This document shows positions 1 through 18,815 of a stretch of DNA of 18,815 bases, one piece after another. The stretch is from Thermoplasmata archaeon (GTDB lineage Archaea > Thermoplasmatota > Thermoplasmata > GCA-020350865): the NCBI GenBank assembly GCA_020348445.1, contig CP070751.1:2361506-2380320 (forward strand), written 5' to 3'. Under the pieces are notes generated by a model, which worked only from the letters and a program-made list of their open reading frames with translations, had not been told where the DNA came from and did not search any database. Both the position numbers and the translations under genes were made by a program. Position 1 is the stretch's first letter, and every line of letters starts with the position of its first letter.

Positions 1-233
1 GAGCGCAGCATAACTTAACAAACCGCCCAAGTCAACCCCCCCCAGTCCCGTCTCTCTCCCATTTTGAAAGGTACAGGCTGAAAGCCTTACGTGGCGCGGG
101 TTTCACGCTCGAGCTTTACCTTGTTTTGTCCCATTTATTTTAAAAAAATAATTTGCGAAAAAACTTGACAGGGTTTTGTACCTTTGGCCGCTTTTTGCGT
201 GTCAAATGTATTTATACTTATATTGTGCGGTCA

Positions 234-443
234 TTACTCTTGACTAGCGGCTTTCTTTTTGCTAGCGCGTTTCTTCTTCGCCGCTGTCGCTTTAGCTTCG
301 GCGCAAGGCTCGCAGACCTGGGTCGTAAAGGGAGCCATATTCGGTCGCTCTTTCTTTAGTTGCTCGATCTTAACCTCGGCTGCGTCCTCGGACTTAGCGT
401 ATGCTCGCCGGTTTCCGTTTTTATCTAATATCTCTAACGTCAT
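234..443 (-). CDS. Small basic hypothetical protein (CxxC plus K/A-rich histone-like tail)
   Basis: 69-aa ATG ORF, last gene of the minus-strand operon, ending in a double stop TAATGA; contains CEPC and a C-terminal AKATAAKKKRASKKKAA. Confidence 0.65.
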   Translation of the reverse strand: MTLEILDKNGNRRAYAKSEDAAEVKIEQLKKERPNMAPFTTQVCEPCAEAKATAAKKKRASKKKAASQE

Positions 444-498
444 AGTATTTTTTTAAAAAACCTCTTTAGCTTTTGGATTAGCCGACTTACCGCTCGTC

Positions 499-1938: not shown

Positions 1939-2208
1939 TTAAGTCCCTGGTCGAAGTAACGTATCGAGGAGCGGCTTTCCGGTCGCAGTCTCGCCAGGAG
2001 CCGGACTCGCTTCGATACCTGGGAGCGTCGGCGTAGGAGCCGCTAGAGCTTTGTCTAACGCCGGTCCCAGGAGGTCGGCGCTACCAGTCGAGGGAAAGCT
2101 AAGCGCTCCGCCTGGGCTTCCCTGCGGTCCCTGCGGGAGAGAATCCGCGACCTCGAGTATCCGGTTAACGACGCTCTCGGCGATATGTACGGTCGGAAAC
2201 TTAATCAT
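1939..2208 (-). CDS. Hypothetical Pro/Gly-rich protein
   Basis: ATG with SD AGGAGAG upstream; ATGA overlap with the upstream gene. Confidence 0.7.
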   Translation of the reverse strand: MIKFPTVHIAESVVNRILEVADSLPQGPQGSPGGALSFPSTGSADLLGPALDKALAAPTPTLPGIEASPAPGETATGKPLLDTLLRPGT

Positions 2209-3602
2209 CGGTTAACTCTCCTATTCCTGCCGCGTCGTCCCTGGGTCGGCCGCGCCGGTCCTGCTTGACTACCAGGATTAACCGGCACCCATTCGATACG
2301 ATTGTCGCCGTGATCCACTCGGTAAAACTCGTTACCGTATTGGTCAGTCATTACTCGCTCGGGAGCGACCTCCTCGAGCGTTCCGTCCGCTCGTCGGATC
2401 GCGTTCCGTCCGTCCGGTGTCTGTAGCAGCGTCTCGCCGCGCAGTTGCCGCGCTACCGATCCCGCGAGCTCCTCTGCGCCTTGTACCGTATCCGCGATAA
2501 AACCGGCGCTCCTGGGCTCCTCCTGCGCCTCGAAGGGAGAGCCAGCCGGGACCGGGATTCCGGCGTTAACCGGATTAAACTGCCTAAACTGGTTAATCGC
2601 TTGCGCGTCCGTCGGGTCGATCCTTACTTGCAAGTGTTTCTGATATGCGGTCCCGTCGAGACCGGCCTCGATGCCGAGCTCCTGGTATTCCGCGTTACGC
2701 TGCATCTGGTCGCGGCGCATCGGGAGATAATTCTCGGCGATAACGCTCATAAGACCGTCCCTAACGTCGTCGTCGAAACCTGCGGTCCCGTCGATAAGCG
2801 AGTTAAGATATCCCGCCATCTGCTGAGTAAGGCTCCCGGTCGCTTGGATCATCTTAGAATCCCCGTCGGTAACGATAGCGCCAGGGTCGATCATCTGAGC
2901 GGTCAGATAAATAAGAGCCATATCCGATTGTGGATTCGGCCGCTCGTAAGCTAGCTGCGCCTTATTCCAGGTCTCCTGAGCTCCGAGGAAACGCTGCGAC
3001 TTAGCCGTTAGCTTCGCGTCGAGGGACTGGTAATTACTAAAGTGCGTCTGACGCTGCTCCCGAGCTCGAGCGTCCGCCTCGAGGCGCTGCGTCTCCCAGG
3101 TATCCATATCCGTTTTAAGCGTCCCTGCGGTCGTCTGTAAACCGAGGAGCGCGTTTCGCCGGACTGCGGGATCGGGATCGTGGACCGCTGCTCCCCATGC
3201 CTGGACCTGCTCGCGGCGCATATTCAGGTCGGCGAGCTCCTCGGGATTCGTCGCTTGCGCTGCCATGTTATCGAGCGCGTCGTTAGCCTCCTTTAGATGA
3301 TCCCGCTCCGAAGCTAGCGCAGCGTCCGCGTAAGCCTCCGCCTCCCTGCGCTGCTTCCCCGCAAAATGCTTTGCGACCGCGAAACCGATTAGTCCGCCGA
3401 GCGGTCCGAAAACCCATCCGGCTCCGGCTCCGGCGAGCGCGGCCGGGACAATATCGTTAGGGAGCCCCGCAGTCTCTCGCTCGATTCGCTGCTGCGCCTT
3501 ATAGCGACTCTCGTCGACGAGCTCGACCGGCTTAGCGCCAGGAGGAGGAGGGAGCGCCGCGCTAGCGAGCCCCGCATTAAAGACTGTGCTTACTCTCGCC
3601 AT
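2205..3602 (-). CDS. Internal virion/DNA ejection protein (465 aa)
   Basis: Start moved to the ATG at 3602, 1 nt after the upstream stop (the track's 3728 start overlaps the previous gene). Glycine-zipper hydrophobic segment GAGAGWVFGPLGGLIGFAVA, coiled coil, and the D.ALIY..A.MIDPGAIV.DGD motif seen in podophage ejection proteins; position after the tail genes. Confidence 0.7.
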   Translation of the reverse strand: MARVSTVFNAGLASAALPPPPGAKPVELVDESRYKAQQRIERETAGLPNDIVPAALAGAGAGWVFGPLGGLIGFAVAKHFAGKQRREAEAYADAALASERDHLKEANDALDNMAAQATNPEELADLNMRREQVQAWGAAVHDPDPAVRRNALLGLQTTAGTLKTDMDTWETQRLEADARAREQRQTHFSNYQSLDAKLTAKSQRFLGAQETWNKAQLAYERPNPQSDMALIYLTAQMIDPGAIVTDGDSKMIQATGSLTQQMAGYLNSLIDGTAGFDDDVRDGLMSVIAENYLPMRRDQMQRNAEYQELGIEAGLDGTAYQKHLQVRIDPTDAQAINQFRQFNPVNAGIPVPAGSPFEAQEEPRSAGFIADTVQGAEELAGSVARQLRGETLLQTPDGRNAIRRADGTLEEVAPERVMTDQYGNEFYRVDHGDNRIEWVPVNPGSQAGPARPTQGRRGRNRRVNR

Positions 3603-9545: not shown

Positions 9546-10178
9546 TTAGCGCCTCCCGTAAGAGCTCATATCGTAATAACCTCGAGTCCTTTGTCCGCCG
9601 ACCATTCGACCGGCTTGCTCGTTAAGCGACTCGATAGCGTTAATGCCGCTCTCGCTATGTACGCTTGCGAGCTCGAGGTCTTGCGTAAATTTGTAAAGCG
9701 CCTCGAGCGCCAGGTCGAGATAGATTCCCTCGTGATTCGTAAGGATCGAATTAGTCGCAGTCGTGGCGAGCGGATCGGGTCGAGCGAAATAGATTAGCTC
9801 GATAGTATCGCTCGTCCCTGGGACTCCGCGAAACTCGACCTCACTCGGCGAGATAACATTAAACCAGCGCGTCGGCGCGGAGCCGGATAATTGCCGGAGC
9901 TCGGCGAGCGAAACCTTTTCGAGCCAATAGTCCGGACTCCCGACCAGGTAAAAAGAGCGCTCCTCGAGAAAGTCGCTCGGGAGCGTAAAGAATCCCTCGT
10001 CTACGGTAACGCGATCCGAGTCCGTAATGTCGACCCGCGTTAGCATCTCCGCGCAGCGTAAGCGCCGAGCGATTACTCCCTCCGCGTAACGGATAAAATC
10101 CGGAGCCTCGGCCGTGAGCTCGGTGCGGTGCGCGGTCGAGAGGATAAGCGTCTGTAAGGTCGTGTAATTGAGGCTCAT
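9546..10178 (-). CDS. Head-tail adaptor (P22 gp4 / T7 gp11 / SU10 adaptor-like)
   Basis: M.NY..L...I......L....PDFI..AE..I.R.LR...M...LPSDFLE pattern; position between capsid and tail genes. Confidence 0.8.
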   Translation of the reverse strand: MSLNYTTLQTLILSTAHRTELTAEAPDFIRYAEGVIARRLRCAEMLTRVDITDSDRVTVDEGFFTLPSDFLEERSFYLVGSPDYWLEKVSLAELRQLSGSAPTRWFNVISPSEVEFRGVPGTSDTIELIYFARPDPLATTATNSILTNHEGIYLDLALEALYKFTQDLELASVHSESGINAIESLNEQAGRMVGGQRTRGYYDMSSYGRR

Positions 10179-10525
10179 TTAATAACCCTCTTAATCGTCC
10201 GTCCGACTCGATACGGCTCGGAGAGCGGAGACTTAGCGAAGCGCTGCCACTCCCTATGACGCTCCTCGTTATTGCGGCTTTTTAAGCCAGGGAACATCGC
10301 GCATATAAACGGATAATCAAACTCCGGTATTCTCATGGCGACGCGACCGAAACCGTCCGAGCTTCCGATATTGCGCGGAGCCGGATCGACTCCGTCTCGC
10401 GCTCGCTTGTTTTCCTCGAGTACCTGGCGGCGCTTCGGGTCTCCGCCGGTATGCGTAAAGGCGGGAATCCCGATAACTTCCGCCTGGTTAATTCCCTCAA
10501 ACTCTCGGCTATCTATCTCGGACAA
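10175..10525 (-). CDS. Conserved hypothetical protein found after SU10-type capsid genes
   Basis: VLEENKR...GRVAMRIP motif; TTG start, overlaps both neighbours. Confidence 0.7.
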   Translation of the reverse strand: MSEIDSREFEGINQAEVIGIPAFTHTGGDPKRRQVLEENKRARDGVDPAPRNIGSSDGFGRVAMRIPEFDYPFICAMFPGLKSRNNEERHREWQRFAKSPLSEPYRVGRTIKRVIK

Positions 10526-10814
10526 TTTCCTCGAGCTCCTTAATCTCTTTTTCCAGGCGAGCGTGTTCCCGCTCCGCCTCCTGGCGATAATAGCGGTCGA
10601 CCGTTTTTCTCGAGAGCTCCTCCCTTATCTGCGTTATCGAAGCGCGGACCTCGAGGAGCTCTTGTCCATGCTGCCGCGCTACGTCGAGCGCTATCTCGGC
10701 GTCCTTTTGGACCGAGACAAACATATTGAGCACGAGCGTCATTAGCGCGAGCAAGCCTCCGCCTCCGAGTCCGGCGAGATACTTTAGACCTCTTACTTGA
10801 TGCTCTACGTCCAC
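10509..10814 (-). CDS. Single-TM plus coiled-coil protein (possible lysis accessory)
   Basis: Hydrophobic segment YLAGLGGGGLLALMTLVLNMFV followed by a heptad-like charged helix; GTG start. Confidence 0.65.
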   Translation of the reverse strand: MDVEHQVRGLKYLAGLGGGGLLALMTLVLNMFVSVQKDAEIALDVARQHGQELLEVRASITQIREELSRKTVDRYYRQEAEREHARLEKEIKELEEIVRDR

Positions 10815-10816
10815 TC

Positions 10817-10847
10817 ATAAAAAGGGAGCGGACCGAAGTCCGCTCCC
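10817..10847 (-). terminator. Intrinsic terminator after the major capsid gene
   Basis: Minus strand GGGAGCGGAC-TTCG-GTCCGCTCCC-TTTTTAT: perfect 10-bp stem, C(UUCG)G tetraloop, U-tract. Confidence 0.9.
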
Positions 10848-10854
10848 GTACTCC

Positions 10855-11907
10855 TTATGCTGTCCAGGCTGCGTCCTCGTCGATATCCCGATAGACCATG
10901 TGCGCCTTTTCCTCGTAAACCTTAACGCACCAGTCCGCGCTAATCTGCCAGCGCTCCGAGAGACCGAGCTTAGAAAGCCGCTCGGCAATCGGTCGGTGCA
11001 TATACGAGAGCGCGACCATCTGCGGGTCGATCCCGAAAAGGCTCGCAGCGGTATTAGAATTGTAATCCTGCTGCAAACGATTCGGATGCAGTTCGAGCGT
11101 AAAGCCGAAGTCTGTAACCATCGTGGTTATATAGCCCTGGCTCGTCTGACCGACTCCGCCTCCGTCTCCTCGGATATTCGCGGTCGGAGTCGCTACCCTC
11201 GAGGACGAGAATAGCCGGACCGCGAGCCGCTTAATGCAAGCGGGAGTACTCATTAACACGGTGGGATTCGCGTTATTTTCGTATGCGGTCTCGATAAGCG
11301 CGGAGAGTCGCGCCTCCGTTCCTGCGACTGCGGTCGTCGCGTTCGTATGCGCGTCGACAATTTTGGTCGAGGTATTAAAGCCTCCCGTCGCGGCTCCCGC
11401 TTCCGAATTGTCGATATTGGTCTCGATCCAATTATCGAAACCGCCCGACTCTCCTGCGGTCGTATTGTTATCGTCCTCGACGCTCGCGTTATTCTCGAGA
11501 GCCATAGCCTCGATATCTCGCTTAAGCTCTTTCTGCCGCTGCATCAAGCCGTAAGCGAGCTCGCCGGAAACGCCGCGACCGATTACGTTCGAGTTTTGCG
11601 CTCGAGTCGTAACGTAGACGTACTTAACCGAAGTCTGTGAATGATTGCCGACGCGCTTTCCGTTGCTATCGGTTTTCGATCCTGCGTCTGCGCCACTGAC
11701 GACCGCATTGGTTACGTCTACAGCGTTTAACGAGTCCTGCGTCCATTCGCAGTAAGCGTTATCGTGCGAGTCGCTACCGACGAGGTCGGTAAACGGGAGC
11801 GGATAATCGGAGATATCAAAAATCCGAGACATAACGTCCTCGGAAACTAAACCTCCGGCCGCGACCGCTTTTAGGTCCTGGGAGTCCCAGTAGTCACTAG
11901 CTGCCAT
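10855..11907 (-). CDS. Major capsid protein (DUF5309/SU10_MCP-like)
   Basis: EDV..RIFDIS....PF, EW.QDSL, RVGN..Q...K.V.VT, ELAY.L....KELKRDIE motifs; SD AGAGG; follows the scaffold gene. Confidence 0.93.
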   Translation of the reverse strand: MAASDYWDSQDLKAVAAGGLVSEDVMSRIFDISDYPLPFTDLVGSDSHDNAYCEWTQDSLNAVDVTNAVVSGADAGSKTDSNGKRVGNHSQTSVKYVYVTTRAQNSNVIGRGVSGELAYGLMQRQKELKRDIEAMALENNASVEDDNNTTAGESGGFDNWIETNIDNSEAGAATGGFNTSTKIVDAHTNATTAVAGTEARLSALIETAYENNANPTVLMSTPACIKRLAVRLFSSSRVATPTANIRGDGGGVGQTSQGYITTMVTDFGFTLELHPNRLQQDYNSNTAASLFGIDPQMVALSYMHRPIAERLSKLGLSERWQISADWCVKVYEEKAHMVYRDIDEDAAWTA

Positions 11908-12973: not shown

Positions 12974-13175
12974 CTGGCTTAACCGTATCGTCGTCGAGGT
13001 CGAGCTCCGACTGGTCCGCCTCCTTAATGGCGCGGAAAAGTATCCCGTTGAGCTCGACCCAGACCGGAGCCTCTCGGCCGGTCATCTGCGCTCGATTGCC
13101 AAAAGCGATTAAGTCTCTAATCTGCTCCTCCGTTAGCCGAAGCGTTATCACTCTCGGTCGGTTTTGTACTTCCAT
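12960..13175 (-). CDS. Hypothetical protein
   Basis: ATG with strong SD GGAGGT 7 nt upstream; overlaps the portal 3' end by 59 nt. Confidence 0.65.
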   Translation of the reverse strand: MEVQNRPRVITLRLTEEQIRDLIAFGNRAQMTGREAPVWVELNGILFRAIKEADQSELDLDDDTVKPGGSA

Positions 13176-15147
13176 TCGATTTACCTCCGTTAAAGCGCGT
13201 CTGCGCGATTAAGTCTGCGGTCGCTTTCCCTGCTATCTTCGCCTCCTCTATCTCGGCGCGAAGCGTCTCGGACCAGACCTTAAAGCTCGTCTCCTGGTCC
13301 GCCTTGTATTTATCGAGCGCCGCTCGCATCTGCTCGAGTCCGACTGCCTGGGACATAAGCGCTCGGCTCGCCGCGCTCTCCTGCGCCGCTGCCGCTTGCT
13401 TATCCTTAAGCGCTTTCTGACTCGCTTCGCTCGCAGGATCGAGAAAATACTGCTCCGGATTCGGGAGCTCGGCCGCTCGGCCGAGGTCGGTAAGCGCCTT
13501 ATAAAATCCGTCGATATTAACGAGGACCTCGTCCATACCCTCTCGAGCTAGCGCTATCTGCGAATCGACTACGCCGCGCAGATTAGCGACCTTACGCGCT
13601 CGCTCTCCTGGGCTCATACCGATTTTAACCGTGACCGAGGTCCTCGGCTCCCAGGTCGCAGGGACCGGCGATAACCAGCGTCCCTCGACGCGCAAGTTAA
13701 CAGGCTGGTCGAAAAATTGTCGGAGCGTAGCGTGACCGATTAAGTAAGCGCCTCGTATTAACGTCGAAGCGATATTTTTTGTCATGTGCGAGGCTAGTTG
13801 CTCCATAACCGAAAAGGCGCGGTCGACTCCCTCCGAGCCGATCCGTCCTCCGCTCATCTGCATATTGCCGGTCGCAAGCTCGAGCGACGCTCCGCCGAGC
13901 TCCGTCCGGTTTTGCTTTTGATATTCCAGGTTAGCCAGGATACCGCCGGATATGTCCGGCTGCGTAAAGGTCGTTATCGCGTTTTGCACGTTACCGACGG
14001 AGGCGCGGACTCGGATATTTCCATTCGGCCGACCGTCCGCCAGGTCCTCGGTATTAACTTTCCCGTCGAGGTATGCGGTCCGCGACTTGATAACGCTGTT
14101 AACGTTATCGAGGAGCGCTCGCTCGAGGCTCGTGTTTTTGTCCTGCTGCTGCTTGAGTTTATCGAAAAGAGATATCCCGGTGAGCCGGTGCGGAGCGATA
14201 AACGGAGTCCCGGTCGAGTACGGGACCAGGCTATGCGGTACGTCCTCGAGAATCGAATCCTGGTTAACTCCCGCGACCGAGATCCTGCGGCGCTCGCTGG
14301 TCCCGTCGCCGGAGTCCATAAGGACATAGCACTCGAACCACTCGACGAGCTCCTGCGAGGAGTCGACCGCGACTGGGACTTGCGGTATCTGCTTAACGTC
14401 CCTGGCGAGCGAGTCGAGCTTAGTATCCCAGTCGAAGCGCTTAAGCCGGTTTACTTTCGACTTCGGGAAACCGCGCTCGATTAGCTTCGACCTGGTCTCG
14501 ATATGCCGCTCCGCAATAAACGGAGTCTCCTGGGTCTCGCTTCGATTCCACTGGGGGAGATAAAGCATATTAGCCGGGTCGATAGACTCGCAGCGAAACC
14601 GGAGCGCGGTTTTCGTTACGCGGAGCTTCGCGTAATGCGAGCCGCTCTCGTACTCGAGGAGCTTAACGCGCATCCCTGGCATATTGCGGAGCTCGGAAAT
14701 AGCCTCGGGAGTCGCGTTCTCGAGCTCGAGCGTCTGCGTTCCCTCCTCCTCCTCGACCCATATCTTAAGCCAGCCGTTGCGGAGTAAGAGCGCGTCCTTA
14801 ATCGCGGTCCCGAGCTCGTTATAACCGTTATTATCCGCCCATAAGAATTTAGAAACCGTAAAGCTCTCGAGCTCCGCCTGGTCGTCGTCGGCCGGTCCTC
14901 GAGCATCGAAGTCGGCGAGATGCCAGGAGCTAAAGCTCTCGAGCATCTGCGCGAGATTAGCCTCGACCATCGAGCTAACGTCGTTCGAGATAACGTTACT
15001 CCGACCCGCTGCCTCGTCGCCGCGCTCTCTCTGGAAATAGTAACCAATAGCCTCGATACGATCCTGGCTAATCTGGTCGGCGTCCCATCCGGCGCACTCG
15101 TGTAATAGTTGCCGGATTTTTGTCCCTAACTCTCGTAAGTCGCTCAT
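13117..15147 (-). CDS. Portal protein (P22/SU10-like)
   Basis: 676 aa; R.EA..YY....GDE..GRS.VIS.DV...VE...QML..F, KDALL.RNG..K, APHR..G.S..DKL motifs; ATGA-coupled to terL. Confidence 0.93.
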   Translation of the reverse strand: MSDLRELGTKIRQLLHECAGWDADQISQDRIEAIGYYFQRERGDEAAGRSNVISNDVSSMVEANLAQMLESFSSWHLADFDARGPADDDQAELESFTVSKFLWADNNGYNELGTAIKDALLLRNGWLKIWVEEEEGTQTLELENATPEAISELRNMPGMRVKLLEYESGSHYAKLRVTKTALRFRCESIDPANMLYLPQWNRSETQETPFIAERHIETRSKLIERGFPKSKVNRLKRFDWDTKLDSLARDVKQIPQVPVAVDSSQELVEWFECYVLMDSGDGTSERRRISVAGVNQDSILEDVPHSLVPYSTGTPFIAPHRLTGISLFDKLKQQQDKNTSLERALLDNVNSVIKSRTAYLDGKVNTEDLADGRPNGNIRVRASVGNVQNAITTFTQPDISGGILANLEYQKQNRTELGGASLELATGNMQMSGGRIGSEGVDRAFSVMEQLASHMTKNIASTLIRGAYLIGHATLRQFFDQPVNLRVEGRWLSPVPATWEPRTSVTVKIGMSPGERARKVANLRGVVDSQIALAREGMDEVLVNIDGFYKALTDLGRAAELPNPEQYFLDPASEASQKALKDKQAAAAQESAASRALMSQAVGLEQMRAALDKYKADQETSFKVWSETLRAEIEEAKIAGKATADLIAQTRFNGGKSNGSTKPTESDNASANGGAD

Positions 15148-16538
15148 ATAACCCTCGAGTCGTGCGCTTCGGTGCTCGGCGCGTTATGCCAGCCGCCGAC
15201 CTCGAGCGGCTCGCTAGCGCGGTGCGTAGCGAAAACCTCGACCGACCGAGCGTAATGCTTCTCCCAGGAATTTACCGGCTCGTTAGTAAAGCTCTGACCG
15301 GCTCGAGCCGGAGAGAAACGATAACCGAGGAGCGAGTCGACGACGTTCTCGTTATTCGGCTCATTATCGGTCCACGAGCGCGGCTCGTTATCAATATAAA
15401 ACGTCGCTAATTGCTCCCTGGTCGTCGAGTACGGAGTTTCGAGCTCGGGAGCCGCGTCGGTTATCTCGCCGCGATTCTCGAAAGCCTCGACGACCTCGGC
15501 CGGAGTCGCTGGCGGGATGATATGCCGCGCAATATAACGCCAGGGGAGCTCGTGCTTTGCCTGGTCGATACAGTCGCCGAGCGACTCGAAAGGATACGAC
15601 GCGCAGCCGACCAGGGTCGACGCGGAGCCGCGAGACTGCCAAAAGGTCGCGGTGTATTGGTCGTGATTCTCGAGGGACCAGGCTGCGATAACCGGCCGCG
15701 ACGAGTCGTAAGGGAAATTTCCGAGCCGCTGCATCTCGACCAGGGAATCGAAGCTCTTTCCGTAGATTGCGCCAGGGAGCGAGGCTATCGGATCGCAGTA
15801 ATACTCCTGGCGGATCATAGCCTCGGACATACCCTCCGAGCGCTCCGCCTCGATATCCGCCGGCGAGAGGATCGGCTTTCCGTTAATGTCCGTCGTATCG
15901 TCGACCGTCCTTACGTCGACGTACCAGTCCGGATGATCGCGGAGCTTTTGCATCATCCTATAAGCGTGGTTTTTGCCTCTGAGAGTCGTGATAAAGATTA
16001 TCCAGCCACCGTTCTCCCTCAAAATCGGCCGAATGTAATCCCAGGCTCTCGGATCGCAGAGAGCCCACTCTGAGACGACCACTCCGGCCGGATTCGCGCC
16101 GACCAGGGAATCGTATCGGTCGCTCCCGCATAGCTGCCATATCGAGCCGTTTTTATACTCGATAGTCATATCCTGCTTAAGCGTCGACTTGCGGAGCTCC
16201 TGCGGAAAGGCGCGGTCGAGAAACTTAACGCGAGCTCGCGGGTCGATTCCGTTCCAGATACTTCTACGCGCCTGGGTATGGGTCGGATATAAATGCCAGT
16301 AATTACCGGGATTCCGCTGCATCTCTCGACCGGCGAGGTCGAGCGCCTCGATATCCTTACCGGCTCGCCTATGCCATACCCTTAGTTGCCGACGGAGACC
16401 TCGGTCGAAAGCTCGCCGCGCTTCCGCCTGGTACGGTCGGAGGGTGAGGGAGGGACTCTCCGTCGAGACGAGCTCTCGGGAGAGTACCCTCTCCTGGGGG
16501 AAATCGGGCTCCGGAGGATAACGGTAATAATCCGACAA
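15144..16538 (-). CDS. terL: Terminase large subunit; ATPase intact, nuclease catalytic residues substituted
   Basis: LRPYQ (Q motif), WHRRAGKD (Walker A), GVVVSE (Walker B), FITTLRGKNH (motif C). C-terminal RNase H-like region aligns in register but lacks the catalytic Asp residues. TTG start. Confidence 0.93.
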   Translation of the reverse strand: MSDYYRYPPEPDFPQERVLSRELVSTESPSLTLRPYQAEARRAFDRGLRRQLRVWHRRAGKDIEALDLAGREMQRNPGNYWHLYPTHTQARRSIWNGIDPRARVKFLDRAFPQELRKSTLKQDMTIEYKNGSIWQLCGSDRYDSLVGANPAGVVVSEWALCDPRAWDYIRPILRENGGWIIFITTLRGKNHAYRMMQKLRDHPDWYVDVRTVDDTTDINGKPILSPADIEAERSEGMSEAMIRQEYYCDPIASLPGAIYGKSFDSLVEMQRLGNFPYDSSRPVIAAWSLENHDQYTATFWQSRGSASTLVGCASYPFESLGDCIDQAKHELPWRYIARHIIPPATPAEVVEAFENRGEITDAAPELETPYSTTREQLATFYIDNEPRSWTDNEPNNENVVDSLLGYRFSPARAGQSFTNEPVNSWEKHYARSVEVFATHRASEPLEVGGWHNAPSTEAHDSRVI

Positions 16539-16657
16539 GAGATATCGCTCGTTAGTATCGCTCTTTAAGAAAAGAGCGAGGGAGCCTCGGAGAGAAAAAC
16601 CGACCGGAAAAACGCTCCGCAGGTCGAGGGACCGGACAAGCTCCCCGCTCCCGCCGG

Positions 16658-16696
16658 ACCGTATCAGTAAAGCCGGTTATTGTAAAGCCGATTTTT
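16658..16696 (-). promoter_or_regulatory. Sigma70-like promoter P2 for terL/late operon
   Basis: Minus strand TTTACA (16681-16686), 17-nt spacer, TG-A-TACGGT extended -10 (16658-16663); AAAAATCGGC box directly upstream of the -35. Confidence 0.6.
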
Positions 16697-16975
16697 TCGG
16701 CGATAAGGAACCCATACCGGGGAGCCTACGACCACGCGGCCGAGCCTTTGTAATCCCGATATCGTCGGTTATGCCTCACTCGATCCTCGAGCGGCTCCCC
16801 ACCAGGTCGTAGGGTCGACGGAGCCTGGGTTTTATCGCTCATACCTCGCTTTTACGGATGGGAGCACAAGGCGGACTCCGCTGCCGATCCTGGCCGCGAG
16901 CGAGCACTCGAGGCAGGACGCCGAGAGAGATACGTCCGGTCAGGATAGACCGGCCGGATCGGTGCTCTCGAGCGG
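16690..16975 (-). ncRNA. Candidate structured non-coding RNA or long leader
   Basis: No ORF of 60 aa or more; lies between promoters P1 and P2; several long stems (16884-95/16952-62, 16862-66/16963-67, 16701-14/16826-37, 16725-33/16805-13, 16719-26/16793-800). Confidence 0.35.
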
Positions 16976-16981
16976 TCTCCG

Positions 16982-17020
16982 ATTCTGTGAAATACCGCCC
17001 AAAATTACAAGCCGATTTTT
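16982..17020 (-). promoter_or_regulatory. Sigma70-like promoter P1 (leftward)
   Basis: Minus strand TTGTAA (17005-17010), 17-nt spacer, CAGAAT (16982-16987); the same AAAAATCGGC box abuts the -35. Confidence 0.5.
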
Positions 17021-17021
17021 C

Positions 17022-17050
17022 TAGATTTTTTTTTTAAAAAAATCCATAAT
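17022..17050 (+). promoter_or_regulatory. Sigma70-like rightward promoter for the + strand cluster
   Basis: TAGATT (17022-27), 17-nt T/A-tract spacer, CATAAT (17045-50), about 40 nt upstream of the ATG at 17092; back-to-back with P1. Confidence 0.45.
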
Positions 17051-17091
17051 AGAGGTCCCCCAGGGGAAAACCGACCAAAGGAAACCGACCC

Positions 17092-17367
17092 ATGAACGAG
17101 AAAGAAAAGCAAAACCTCGCAGTCCGACGGGAGCTCGAAAAGCTCGCCGAGGTCGTCGAGGGATTCCGCGACCTGGCAGACCAGGCTAAAGCCGAAGCGA
17201 AAGAGCTCGAGCTTTGGTGTCGCCGCATGGATAAGCTACGCGGAGACCTCTGGCTCGATAACGCTATCTCCGAGCTCGAGGACCTGGCAGAAACCTATAA
17301 GAGCCGAAAGCGGGACCGGCTCTCCGCTGTACTCTCTTTCCCGCATAACGAAAAGGAAACCGACTAA
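17092..17367 (+). CDS. Hypothetical helical protein
   Basis: ATG with SD AAGGA; TAATG coupling to the next gene. Confidence 0.75.
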   Translation: MNEKEKQNLAVRRELEKLAEVVEGFRDLADQAKAEAKELELWCRRMDKLRGDLWLDNAISELEDLAETYKSRKRDRLSAVLSFPHNEKETD

Positions 17368-17585
17368 TGAACGCATATCTAAAAATCGACTATTCTCGCG
17401 CCGGACTTTGGGACCTCGAAAAAATGTCCGACGAGGCTCTCGGAGCTATCACTCGCGCCGCGCTGCAATCCGCTATCGCGCAGCGTCTCGACTCCGATTA
17501 CGGGACTTACGCCGCGATAGCCTGGGAGGTCCAGGTACGCGACGAGGAGCCGCAGAAAGAGGAGGACGAGGAGTCCGAGTCGTGA
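17367..17585 (+). CDS. Hypothetical acidic protein
   Basis: ATG with SD AAGGA; GTGA coupling to the next gene. Confidence 0.75.
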   Translation: MNAYLKIDYSRAGLWDLEKMSDEALGAITRAALQSAIAQRLDSDYGTYAAIAWEVQVRDEEPQKEEDEESES

Positions 17586-17791
17586 GCCAGGTCACGATGA
17601 TAAAACGCGAGCTCGAGGCAGGAGGTAAGGTCTCGCAGCTATCCGCGCTCCGCGATTACGGGTGTATGCGCCTCTCGCACGTTATCTGGAAACTCCGGCA
17701 AAATGGGCTTAATATCGAGACCGACTGGAGAAACCAGCGCGGGAAGCGATACGCTGTCTACCGGCTTGTAAGCCCCGAGGACGAGACCTAG
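17582..17791 (+). CDS. Winged helix-turn-helix protein (HTH_39-like)
   Basis: True start is probably the GTG at 17582 (SD GAGGAG, GTGA overlap), not 17408. SQVTMIKRELEAGGKVSQLSALRDYGCMRLSHVIWKLRQNGLNIET...YAVYRL matches the phage HTH_39 pattern. Confidence 0.8.
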   Translation: MSQVTMIKRELEAGGKVSQLSALRDYGCMRLSHVIWKLRQNGLNIETDWRNQRGKRYAVYRLVSPEDET

Positions 17792-17827
17792 CAGGAGGGA
17801 ATAGTAAGGCTAGGGCCTACCCTTGCG

Positions 17828-17869
17828 CCGCGCCACGAGGCTCCTATTAGCTCTGGCGCGGTTTTTTTT
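17828..17869 (+). terminator. Intrinsic terminator after the HTH_39 gene
   Basis: CCGCGCCA (17828-35) pairs with TGGCGCGG (17854-61), with an inner bulged stem, followed by T8. Confidence 0.8.
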
Positions 17870-17887
17870 GGTTTTTTTTTGGAAAAA

Positions 17888-18223
17888 ATGAGCGATAACG
17901 ACCAGGAAACAAGTACCTACAGTCGACCTCCGGACCTGGAAAAGTACGCAGAGTCCGCGCCGACCAGGAGGGAGTTAGCCTGGGCTCTTTTGAAGCAGAC
18001 GAGAAACGCGACTTACGTCGCCATGAGGTATGGATATGATATCGACACTATGGAGAAAGCTCTCGAGCGCATACCGGAGGAGGAACCCTTACATCGGAAA
18101 CTCGCACGACGAGGCTACCGTCCAAATTCCTTACTGGGTCGAAGCGAATCCGAGCAAGCAGCAGAAACGCTACCGGAAAGTTTTAGCCGAGAGCCAGGAT
18201 CGGACGACGACCTCGGAGAGTAA
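17888..18223 (+). CDS. Putative HTH DNA-binding protein
   Basis: ATG at 17888 (track start 17879 is TTG). ATYVAMRYGYDIDTMEKAL fits the classical HTH register (A5, G9, hydrophobic 4/8/10/15); acidic tail REPGSDDDLGE. Confidence 0.6.
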   Translation: MSDNDQETSTYSRPPDLEKYAESAPTRRELAWALLKQTRNATYVAMRYGYDIDTMEKALERIPEEEPLHRKLARRGYRPNSLLGRSESEQAAETLPESFSREPGSDDDLGE

Positions 18224-18260: not shown

Positions 18261-18560
18261 CTATAAGCCGAGCTCGCGGAGGCAGTCTCCCAGGTCTCGC
18301 ACAATAGCGACCGGCCGACCCGTCCACGTTTCGATAAAGTCCGCCTGGTCAGGCTCGAGCCGGTTTTTACCTGCGGGATTTTTTACCTCCCATAAGTGCG
18401 TAATACCGTTATAGCCGACGACCAGGTCGACCGGCTTACCGATAACGACGACCTCGATCCCTGGTATCTGCTCGAGCGCTGCGACTAGCTCCTTTTGGTT
18501 ATCATCCTGGCGCGGATTATGGCCGCGATAGCCGCGAGACTGGTAGCGGTGTCTAGGCAT
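18261..18560 (-). CDS. VRR-NUC / PD-(D/E)XK nuclease (Holliday-junction resolvase-like)
   Basis: D.NQ..LV..L...PG..V.....PVDLVVG..G...LWEVK...L...Q..F...W.G pattern with catalytic D and ExK intact; SD AAGAGG 7-8 nt upstream. Confidence 0.85.
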   Translation of the reverse strand: MPRHRYQSRGYRGHNPRQDDNQKELVAALEQIPGIEVVVIGKPVDLVVGYNGITHLWEVKNPAGKNRLEPDQADFIETWTGRPVAIVRDLGDCLRELGL

Positions 18561-18569
18561 ATTTTTTCC

Positions 18570-18805
18570 CTCTTGTCAAGCCCCACCATAAAAAAATTTC
18601 GGTGTCAAGGGAAAATATCAGCGCAAAATAATTTACCAATAATCCCCGCCAAAAATCGTGCCAAGTTTTCGCTCGAGTCTTAACCCATACCGAAAAAAAC
18701 GCCAATAAAAACAGGCATTTACGGCCGATTTTCCCTCCCATTTTCCGCGACTTGACAAAACTTGAGATAAACGTTACGCTCGCCGCGACGTTGCTCTTGA
18801 CAAGC
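18570..18805. repeat. CTCTTGWCAAGC direct repeat containing the palindrome CTTGWCAAG
   Basis: CTCTTGTCAAGC at 18570-18581 and CTCTTGACAAGC at 18794-18805; further CTTGACA copies at 18603-09 (minus) and 18751-57. Confidence 0.75.
18752..18780 (+). promoter_or_regulatory. Sigma70-like promoter pointing out of the right end
   Basis: TTGACA (18752-57), 17-nt spacer, TACGCT (18775-80). Confidence 0.6.
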
Positions 18806-18815
18806 GGCCGACTTG

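Follow-up and report, generated by a model that had tools for sequence, protein, structure and literature searches.

The packaging ATPase gp16 of phage phi29 has a vestigial nuclease as its C-terminal domain (CTD), with a reduced 4-stranded core (Mahler et al. 2020, PMC7672431). In the large terminase (TerL) of phage G20c, which is near-identical to that of P74-26, the nuclease works by a two-metal RuvC-like mechanism, with metal A bound by D294 and D429 and metal B by D294 and D347, and the mutants D294N, D347N and D429N are inactive or show the lowest nuclease activity (PMC5389553). Here, we analyse the TerL gene in a stretch of 18,815 bp (positions 2,361,506 to 2,380,320 of CP070751.1, assembly GCA_020348445.1), the whole of which is called the window below. 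This TerL has lost the canonical two-metal nuclease site but kept the nuclease fold and the ATPase, and, as judged from the sequences compared, a large clade of uncultured SU10-type podophages of ~17-20 kb is fixed for this state.

To our knowledge, terminase nuclease activity is taken to be a universal property of tailed phages, the phi29 group excepted, and in the literature we found neither a nuclease-less terminase outside that group nor an SU10-type protein-primed phage. Poxviruses have a nuclease-less packaging ATPase, A32, together with a Holliday-junction resolvase, A22, that resolves concatemers. We consider it probable that the TerL of the window is a working packaging ATPase whose RNase H-like CTD has kept its fold and lost two-metal catalysis, and that the motor only translocates unit-length linear genomes.

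Loss of the metal ligands in the terminase nuclease domain

The TerL gene, its two domains and the three sites of interest are the following.

15144..16538, minus strand: large terminase (TerL), 464 aa, TTG start, a single unbroken open reading frame (ORF) by translation
15729..16439, minus strand: ATPase domain, residues ~34-270, with Walker A K61, catalytic E157, Arg finger R141 and coupling motif T184-T185
15204..15728, minus strand: C-terminal RNase H-like 'ex-nuclease' domain, residues ~271-445, with the metal-ligand carboxylates gone
15675..15677, minus strand: S288 (TCC), at the end of strand beta1, replacing the Asp that bridges metals A and B
15507..15512, minus strand: P343-A344 (A344 = GCG, 15507-09), replacing the H-D of LPHD, the metal B ligand
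15237..15272, minus strand: last-helix motif N423-S424-W425-E426-K-H428-Y-A430-R431-S-V-E434 (R431 = CGG, 15246-48)

A canonical TerL nuclease is recognised here by three metal-ligand carboxylates, an Asp on beta1, an Asp or Glu after beta4 and an Asp in the last helix, and at these places the TerL of the window has S288, A344 and R431 instead. In the canonical relatives the corresponding motifs are (W/F)DLG..D, LPHD and SH.ADA.RY, and they align with the window TerL in exact register, gap-free at motifs I and III. The Asp motifs that an earlier note on this DNA had given for the subfamily are thus real, and the residues and codons that it had named (S288 TCC, P343/A344 GCG, N423/S424, R431 CGG) are borne out by translation; only the retained Asp of the first motif, which it called D292, is actually D293, preceded by H292. 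In the hhalign alignment of the family profile with the P74-26 TerL, the sequence of which was taken from GenBank for this residue mapping (probability 79%, E 1.7e-5), S288 corresponds to D294 and A344 to D347, and an alignment of the CTD only, which is of low confidence, places R431 at D429. It is also noted that in the last helix the canonical D431 has become Arg and the canonical R434 has become Glu, which looks like a charge swap.

The fold of the domain is kept. With VIA-align, TerL residues 254-455 give Z 15.3 over 170 aa with the nuclease of P22 gp2, and Z 14.4, 14.3, 14.1 and 13.6 with the nuclease domains of SPP1 G2P, G20c, P74-26 and RB49, respectively. The length of the CTD, 195 aa, is the same as in the canonical relatives.

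The same picture is obtained when the relatives are compared position by position. At positions 288/293/344/431 the residue is acidic in 100%/97-100%/100%/97-100% of the canonical groups, in 0%/69%/36%/0% of the 61-member clade to which the window belongs, and in 15%/50%/10%/25% of the branch that bears a protein-primed family B polymerase (PolB). Position 288 is Ser in 89% of the window clade and is never acidic there, while the fraction still acidic at position 344 indicates relaxed constraint at that position. The mean pairwise identities of the CTD and the N-terminal domain are 0.50/0.69 in the window clade, 0.49/0.65 in the canonical relatives and 0.30/0.60 in the PolB branch. Since the window clade resembles the canonical relatives in this respect, there is constraint on its CTD, and this is no decaying gene. 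In the PolB lineages the CTD is shorter, with a median of 182 aa and a minimum of 158. Five IMG/VR relatives, which lie in a sub-branch of the window clade, have their TerL split at the domain linker (~residues 266-277) into separate ATPase and CTD ORFs (L046, at 2205-3460, where stop and start overlap as ATGA, and L057, L067, L128 and L039), and stand-alone halves are also present among the representatives, as a CTD of 198 aa (P0138) and an ATPase of 272 aa (P0132).

The ATPase half

The profile PHROG_2, 'terminase large subunit', matches residues 29-286 only, i.e. the ATPase half (E 8e-20), and no Pfam family, including the terminase families Terminase_6 and Terminase_6C, matches TerL at E <= 0.01. 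Since the relatives, canonical ones too, are without a precomputed Pfam domain, the missing Pfam match reflects the coverage of the families and not the loss of residues. Searching the PDB sequences with the TerL protein or its profile returned the P74-26 ATPase alone. The AlphaFold2 (AF2) model of TerL, with a pLDDT of 90.8, has the TerLs of D6E, T4, Sf6 and HK97 as its best structural matches, and its N-terminal half superposes on the ATPase domain of P74-26 with Z 22.6 and rmsd 2.5 over 211 residues (VIA-align).

In the phmmer alignment K61, E157, R141 and T184/T185 correspond to the Walker A Lys, the catalytic Glu, the Arg finger R139 and the coupling motif of P74-26. The residues W55-H-R-R-x-G60-K61-D62, S156-E157 and T185 are invariant in 79 sequences, canonical and non-canonical together, in keeping with the statement of the earlier note that the ORF is unbroken and the ATPase intact. 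The Walker B Asp is Ser (S156, 16071-16073) throughout the family, canonical members included; this Ser is a family trait that has no link to the nuclease loss.

Extent of the loss among the relatives

The search for TerL homologs returned 2,327 of them. A FastTree phylogeny of 256 TerLs has 117 sequences in the outgroup and 139 in the ingroup. The outgroup consists of phages of ~35-47 kb that are almost all canonical. The ingroup has support 1.0, and its contigs concentrate at 16-20 kb. Its subclade A contains the canonical forms (24 sequences) and, nested with them, a clade reading 'FDRST / MPPGA / LANAF', in which two of the three ligands were lost independently and the first Asp alone was kept. 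In subclade B, which contains the 61-member window clade, all 100 of 100 sequences are non-canonical, with the inner 96 at support 1.0; the loss is thus clade-wide, as the earlier note had suggested checking with a phylogeny. With subclade B wholly non-canonical and the 'FDRST' clade nested separately, the catalytic set has been lost at least twice. Branches at the base of the sister clade to which the PolB phages belong also show the state S288/R431/E434.

That the residue state is not due to read errors, as the earlier note had argued from the codons, follows from the ~60 distinct proteins of 52-64% identity that carry it, a number that argues against chance as well. The closest canonical relatives are 41-46% identical to the window TerL, and the best match in an isolate phage is 35% identical. 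The window-clade contigs cluster at 17-19 kb, and none is embedded in host DNA. There is no member of the clade in 185,579 GTDB genomes, so that these give neither a prophage context nor a host, and almost no close relative was found among the JGI metagenome contigs, where L086 stands alone at 61%.

As a side observation on the 'FDRST' clade, the contig of its member P0095 (ENA ERZ23486238) has 37,520 bp, exactly twice the unit length, with TerL 670 nt from one end and a second 'similar place' reported. This contig may be an inverted dimer, as is expected of hairpin-ended or inverted-terminal-repeat (ITR) genomes.

Loss of the TerS-like gene and the region upstream of TerL

In the canonical ingroup an ORF of 82-98 aa overlaps the TerL start, and its family is syntenic in many outgroup phages, giving 77 loci in total. 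The family was found at 0 of 33 non-canonical loci and is absent from the window too. Counting the in-tree subset only, the ORF is present in 47 of 117 canonical and 0 of 22 non-canonical members (Fisher p 5e-5, uncorrected for phylogeny). The PHROGs gave no annotation for these ORFs, which are called TerS-like from their synteny alone. In the window, the place of this ORF is occupied as follows.

16539..17091, minus strand: gene-free stretch of 553 nt at the position of the TerS-like ORF of the canonical relatives, with no ORF >=60 aa
16707-16836, minus strand: conserved structured element (RNAalifold, 6 sequences: 27 pairs, 13 with compensatory change)

A covariance model of the element matches the close subclade only (the window, L002, L166/167, L168, L169 and L086), and the element has no Rfam match. 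It could be a leader, a small RNA, a packaging RNA or a DNA site. Between the element and TerL, most of the window-clade relatives have a near-consensus sigma-54 promoter (TTGGCAC-N5-TTGC), directly upstream of TerL, which the window does not have (L002 ~3185-3205, L166 ~2985-3005, L168, L169 and L086). A gene for an enhancer-binding protein is absent from these promoter-bearing genomes.

Genome ends

In the canonical contigs of ~18.7 kb, the ends fall inside genes at arbitrary positions, and one such phage recovered from two samples (L170 and L171) has different break points in them, which implies a circular or permuted map. By contrast, the end positions of the non-canonical contigs are constant for each lineage. 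In nine contigs of the window clade (the window, L002, L166, L167, L168, L169, L046, L057 and L039) the TerL start lies 2.2-4.4 kb from the non-coding end, and in other lineages of subclade B it lies 50-590 nt or ~3.6-4.0 kb from the end. L166 and L167, which are one phage from two samples, have ends that differ by 57 nt. The two termini of the window are the following.

1..498, no strand: non-coding far terminus, with the motif CCGCCC..GTCAACCCCCCCC at 22-44 nt from the contig end
18561..18815, no strand: non-coding near terminus, the inward reading of which begins with CAAGTCG

The same far-end motif is found at 11-34 nt from the end in the independent contig G006, the TerL of which is ~52% identical to that of the window; CCGCCC..GTCAACCCCCCC lies at the far end of both, within 11-22 nt of the terminus. 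G006 also begins with CAAGTCG, and both terminal motifs are positioned alike in the two contigs within ~10 nt. A/T tracts and repeated promoter-like boxes abound in the end regions.

For the window and G006, searches for ITRs and direct terminal repeats (DTRs) stayed at the level of shuffled sequences, where an ITR of <~10 nt or one lost at ragged ends would escape, and no hairpin-type fold-back was seen by eye at the contig ends. The hexamer CAAGTC has 8 copies over both strands of the window contig, and three of them, at 28-33 (plus), 18749-18754 (minus) and 18810-18815 (minus), are found in inverted orientation no more than 65 nt from the ends. We dropped this hexamer as a candidate ITR, the motif not being conserved in all relatives.

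Replication genes and the terminal nuclease

The sister lineages and the window subclade differ in their replication genes. The protein-primed family B polymerase, PF03175, is present in 5 of 5 IMG/VR records of the L017 type, at the end opposite to TerL, in L175-177, where it adjoins TerL and a 408-aa gene lies at the very terminus, and in L111 and L195. Four genomes of the PolB lineages (G001, G002, G004 and G005) have ITRs of ~80-225 nt, and G004 and G011 are labelled as ITR genomes by IMG/VR. A protein family of ~129 aa is also seen next to PolB in every PolB-bearing lineage (L175:3200-3589, L111, L178-L182). This ~129-aa protein and the terminal 408-aa gene are candidates for replication accessory and terminal proteins. 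Neither has a family annotation, and the PHROGs gave none for the putative terminal protein. The canonical relatives have a Prim-Pol or Toprim plus an AAA_25 helicase, or small early genes only. In the window subclade there is no integrase, and its conserved early genes encode two helix-turn-helix (HTH) proteins, a protein of 91-108 aa and a nuclease of 99-124 aa. In the window this nuclease is encoded as follows.

18261..18560, minus strand: Hjc/VRR-NUC-type PD-(D/E)XK nuclease, 99 aa, the first gene at the genome end (phrog_93 endonuclease, E 6e-6)

Its motif D19, D45, E58-x-K60 is intact, with D45 and E58-x-K60 conserved in the family. The family profile matches the archaeal Hjc 1HH1 and the VRR-NUC 4QBN at E ~1e-3, and the AF2 model of the protein (pLDDT 84) has VRR_NUC 4QBO/4QBN as the top Foldseek matches (TM 0.58), followed by Hjc, while the Pfam VRR_NUC profile itself does not match. 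Every window-clade contig checked has the gene at <=~750 nt from its end, and in the non-canonical lineages the nuclease and PolB are mutually exclusive.

The contig and its other genes

The window is one entire contig with runs of N on both sides, rather than a chromosomal region, and the source 'genome' is a metagenome-assembled genome (MAG) in which contigs were concatenated by 100-N spacers. The GC content of the contig is 56.5%, the median of the bin is 41.7% and the next-highest contig of the bin has 48.9%. As a GC outlier the contig is probably mis-binned, and the bin therefore gives no inference on the host. A prophage or a gene transfer agent was considered and rejected, because the window is the whole of one contig in an N-spaced MAG and is a GC outlier; flanked by N and outlying in GC, it is not integrated. 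A single long minus-strand operon encodes TerL, an SU10-type portal, a scaffold-like protein, an SU10 major capsid protein, an SU10 adaptor, tail proteins and an M15 peptidase. The virion-plus-lysis module is complete, with every ORF intact.

13117..15147, minus strand: SU10-type portal (PF23899 SU10_portal, E 3e-107)
10855-11907, minus strand: SU10-type major capsid protein (PF17236, E 3e-55)
9546-10178, minus strand: SU10 adaptor (PF24175, E 5e-21)
9546..11907, minus strand: block with the major capsid protein, two small ORFs and the adaptor
17092..18223, plus strand: divergent early operon of four small genes (91 aa, 72 aa, a 63-aa HTH_39 winged HTH protein and a 114-aa HTH-like protein)

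The portal start overlaps the TerL stop, so that the terminase-portal adjacency at the head of the morphogenesis operon holds. In the early operon there is no candidate for a polymerase, a primase, an integrase or a terminal protein, and HTH_39 is the sole Pfam family recognised in the early proteins and the 99-aa nuclease. Scans of the window for tRNA genes and Rfam families returned nothing.

Packaging model and alternative explanations

With the ligands gone, the TerS-like gene lost with them and the linear ends constant, the motor is most likely translocation-only. In the model, TerL would load unit-length linear genomes, the ends of which would be made without the terminase, and the retained CTD would serve in contact with DNA or the portal. 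In the sister lineages the unit-length substrate would come from protein-primed replication with PolB and ITRs, as in phi29. In the window subclade the ends would be made in another way, for which the sole candidate seen is the terminal Hjc/VRR-NUC-type nuclease. For the phage of the window itself, we infer the absence of TerL nuclease activity and the packaging of unit-length DNA from an inherited dead site, a missing TerS and positionally conserved ends.

The earlier note had proposed a translocation-only motor, convergent with phi29 gp16 in an SU10-type virion, which would package pre-formed linear DNA or rely on a nuclease in trans. At the level of the clade this proposal stands, with PolB, ITRs and the co-loss of TerS; since sister lineages with PolB and ITRs belong to the same non-canonical clade, the convergence with gp16 is real at that level, and the phi29-style solution seems to have arisen a second time. 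It does not carry over in full to the phage of the window, which has neither PolB nor an ITR. There, the pre-formed linear DNA is suggested by the conserved contig ends, and the nuclease in trans by the constant Hjc/VRR-NUC-like gene at the terminus.

Several points weigh against our model, and some of them favour other explanations. There is no PolB and no terminal-protein candidate in the window, nor in the window-clade records G006-G008, and as the subclade is without these and without an ITR, phi29 logic is not demonstrated for the window genome. The CTD of the window clade is constrained as strongly as that of the active relatives; D383, D401, E426 and H428 have disappeared from the PolB lineages, whereas the window clade and the canonical relatives both conserve them; and the conservation of E434 is 98%. 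It might then be that TerL still cuts, e.g. at a cos-like site, by means of a remodelled site built from E426, H428, E434, D383, H339 and S288. The pattern of D383, D401, E426 and H428 keeps such a reading of residual function alive, and the fixed contig ends could be explained by cos-type cutting, as unique ends without ITR or DTR fit cos genomes. We nevertheless regard it as quite unlikely that TerL still cuts. All three of the ligands indispensable in G20c have changed, to Ser, Ala and Arg, and at the beta1 position, where RNase H-like enzymes have the Asp that bridges both metals, no member of the clade has an acidic residue. The pair R431/E434 resembles a charge swap of the canonical pair D431/R434, and this suggests that it is structural and not catalytic. 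The state S288/R431/E434 is moreover shared by basal branches of the PolB-containing sister clade, and the TerS-like partner is missing.

The cutting could instead be done by a separate enzyme, with concatemers or circles cut to unit length or headful by a nuclease of the Hjc/VRR-NUC-like type or of the host, TerL translocating only and the ends being in part assembler breaks. The nuclease of the window subclade, with its intact D..D..ExK motif, its gene at the terminus of every window-clade contig checked and its restriction, within the triad-less lineages, to those that have no PolB, is consistent with this explanation and is a candidate for making the ends of the subclade. The fixed ends could also be explained by assembly breaks in DNA as full of A/T tracts and repeated promoter-like boxes as that of the end regions. 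This explanation is unlikely, however, because Hjc and VRR-NUC enzymes resolve specific structures, and neither a palindromic junction nor an ITR was seen, and because the nine window-clade contigs, which derive from several assemblers and sources, all end in one and the same intergenic region, with a match at nucleotide level at both ends for two of them. VRR-NUC genes are found in canonical relatives too (L083 and several 40-kb phages), so that the presence of the nuclease is not specific, and this speaks against its role in our model as well. As for a defective element, that is, a decaying phage remnant with an unused terminase, it could be considered in view of the 18.8 kb with no replication, integration or TerS genes and of the location of the contig in a MAG bin. 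Yet the virion-plus-lysis module is complete with all ORFs intact, the ~60 diverged relatives keep the gene set and the conserved CTD, the 17-19 kb contigs are never inside host DNA, and the window contig, a GC outlier flanked by N, is not integrated; the chance of such a remnant is very nearly negligible.

Returning to the translocation-only motor, we add a rather improbable extension, namely that the window subclade would use a packaging strategy new for tailed phages, with no terminase nuclease, TerS, protein-primed polymerase or ITR, and with two different fixed ends. In that strategy the ends would be made by a terminal resolvase-type nuclease, following poxvirus logic, or by the borrowed machinery of a co-resident element, e.g. 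a PolB-encoding relative.

Comparison with known systems

The relatives present a canonical terminase family with a large radiation that would have lost its cutter at least twice, each time together with its TerS-like gene and with a change from permuted ends to fixed ones, with protein-primed replication gained in some branches. This would be an independent replicate of the path proposed for gp16, in which the making of unit-length genomes renders the nuclease dispensable (PMC7672431), with living intermediates that have a ligand-free full fold, a linker-split TerL or an eroded CTD. If true, the graded series from active nuclease to dead full fold, split gene and eroded domain would show the origin of the phi29 vestigial nuclease. 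The family also makes it testable what the nuclease fold contributes to a packaging motor apart from cutting. In addition, headful or cos packaging would be inferred here, wrongly, by annotation pipelines that label such a gene 'terminase large subunit'.

With phi29 gp16, the window TerL shares an ASCE packaging ATPase and an RNase H-like CTD without catalytic carboxylates, and there is no TerS; the small podophage genome of ~18-19 kb and the PolB and ITRs of the sister lineages are further likenesses to phi29. By contrast, it has no detectable sequence kinship with gp16, belonging to a canonical terminase family at 41-46% to active-looking relatives, and its full-size CTD of 195 aa has every secondary-structure element. 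The virion module of the window is SU10-type, its subclade is without PolB, terminal protein and ITR, and the predicted conserved structured element upstream of TerL is at most a candidate for a pRNA.

The canonical podophage TerLs (Alteromonas phage ZP6, Vibrio phages VP2/VP5, Stenotrophomonas BUCT phages and Mx9), at 30-35% identity, and those of the ~18.7 kb relatives share with the window TerL the family, the domain order, the ATPase motifs including S156-E157 and the SU10-type portal directly downstream, whereas they keep D288, D293, D344 and D431 together with the TerS-like ORF, a set that the window does not have, and the ~18.7 kb relatives have circularly permuted contigs, unlike the window. 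The nuclease of G20c / P74-26 has the same fold (Z ~14 over 165-167 aligned residues) with corresponding motif positions, but its essential D294, D347 and D429 are Ser, Ala and Arg in the window TerL. With the poxviruses the likeness lies in a cutter-less packaging ATPase and a resolvase-type nuclease in one genome, with the differences that A32 is FtsK-like and not a terminase, that A22 is RuvC-like and not PD-(D/E)XK, and that no hairpin or inverted-repeat junction was found in the window. Among these systems, the known kind to which the window TerL belongs may be the packaging ATPase with a vestigial nuclease, and the PolB-less subclade may be something further.

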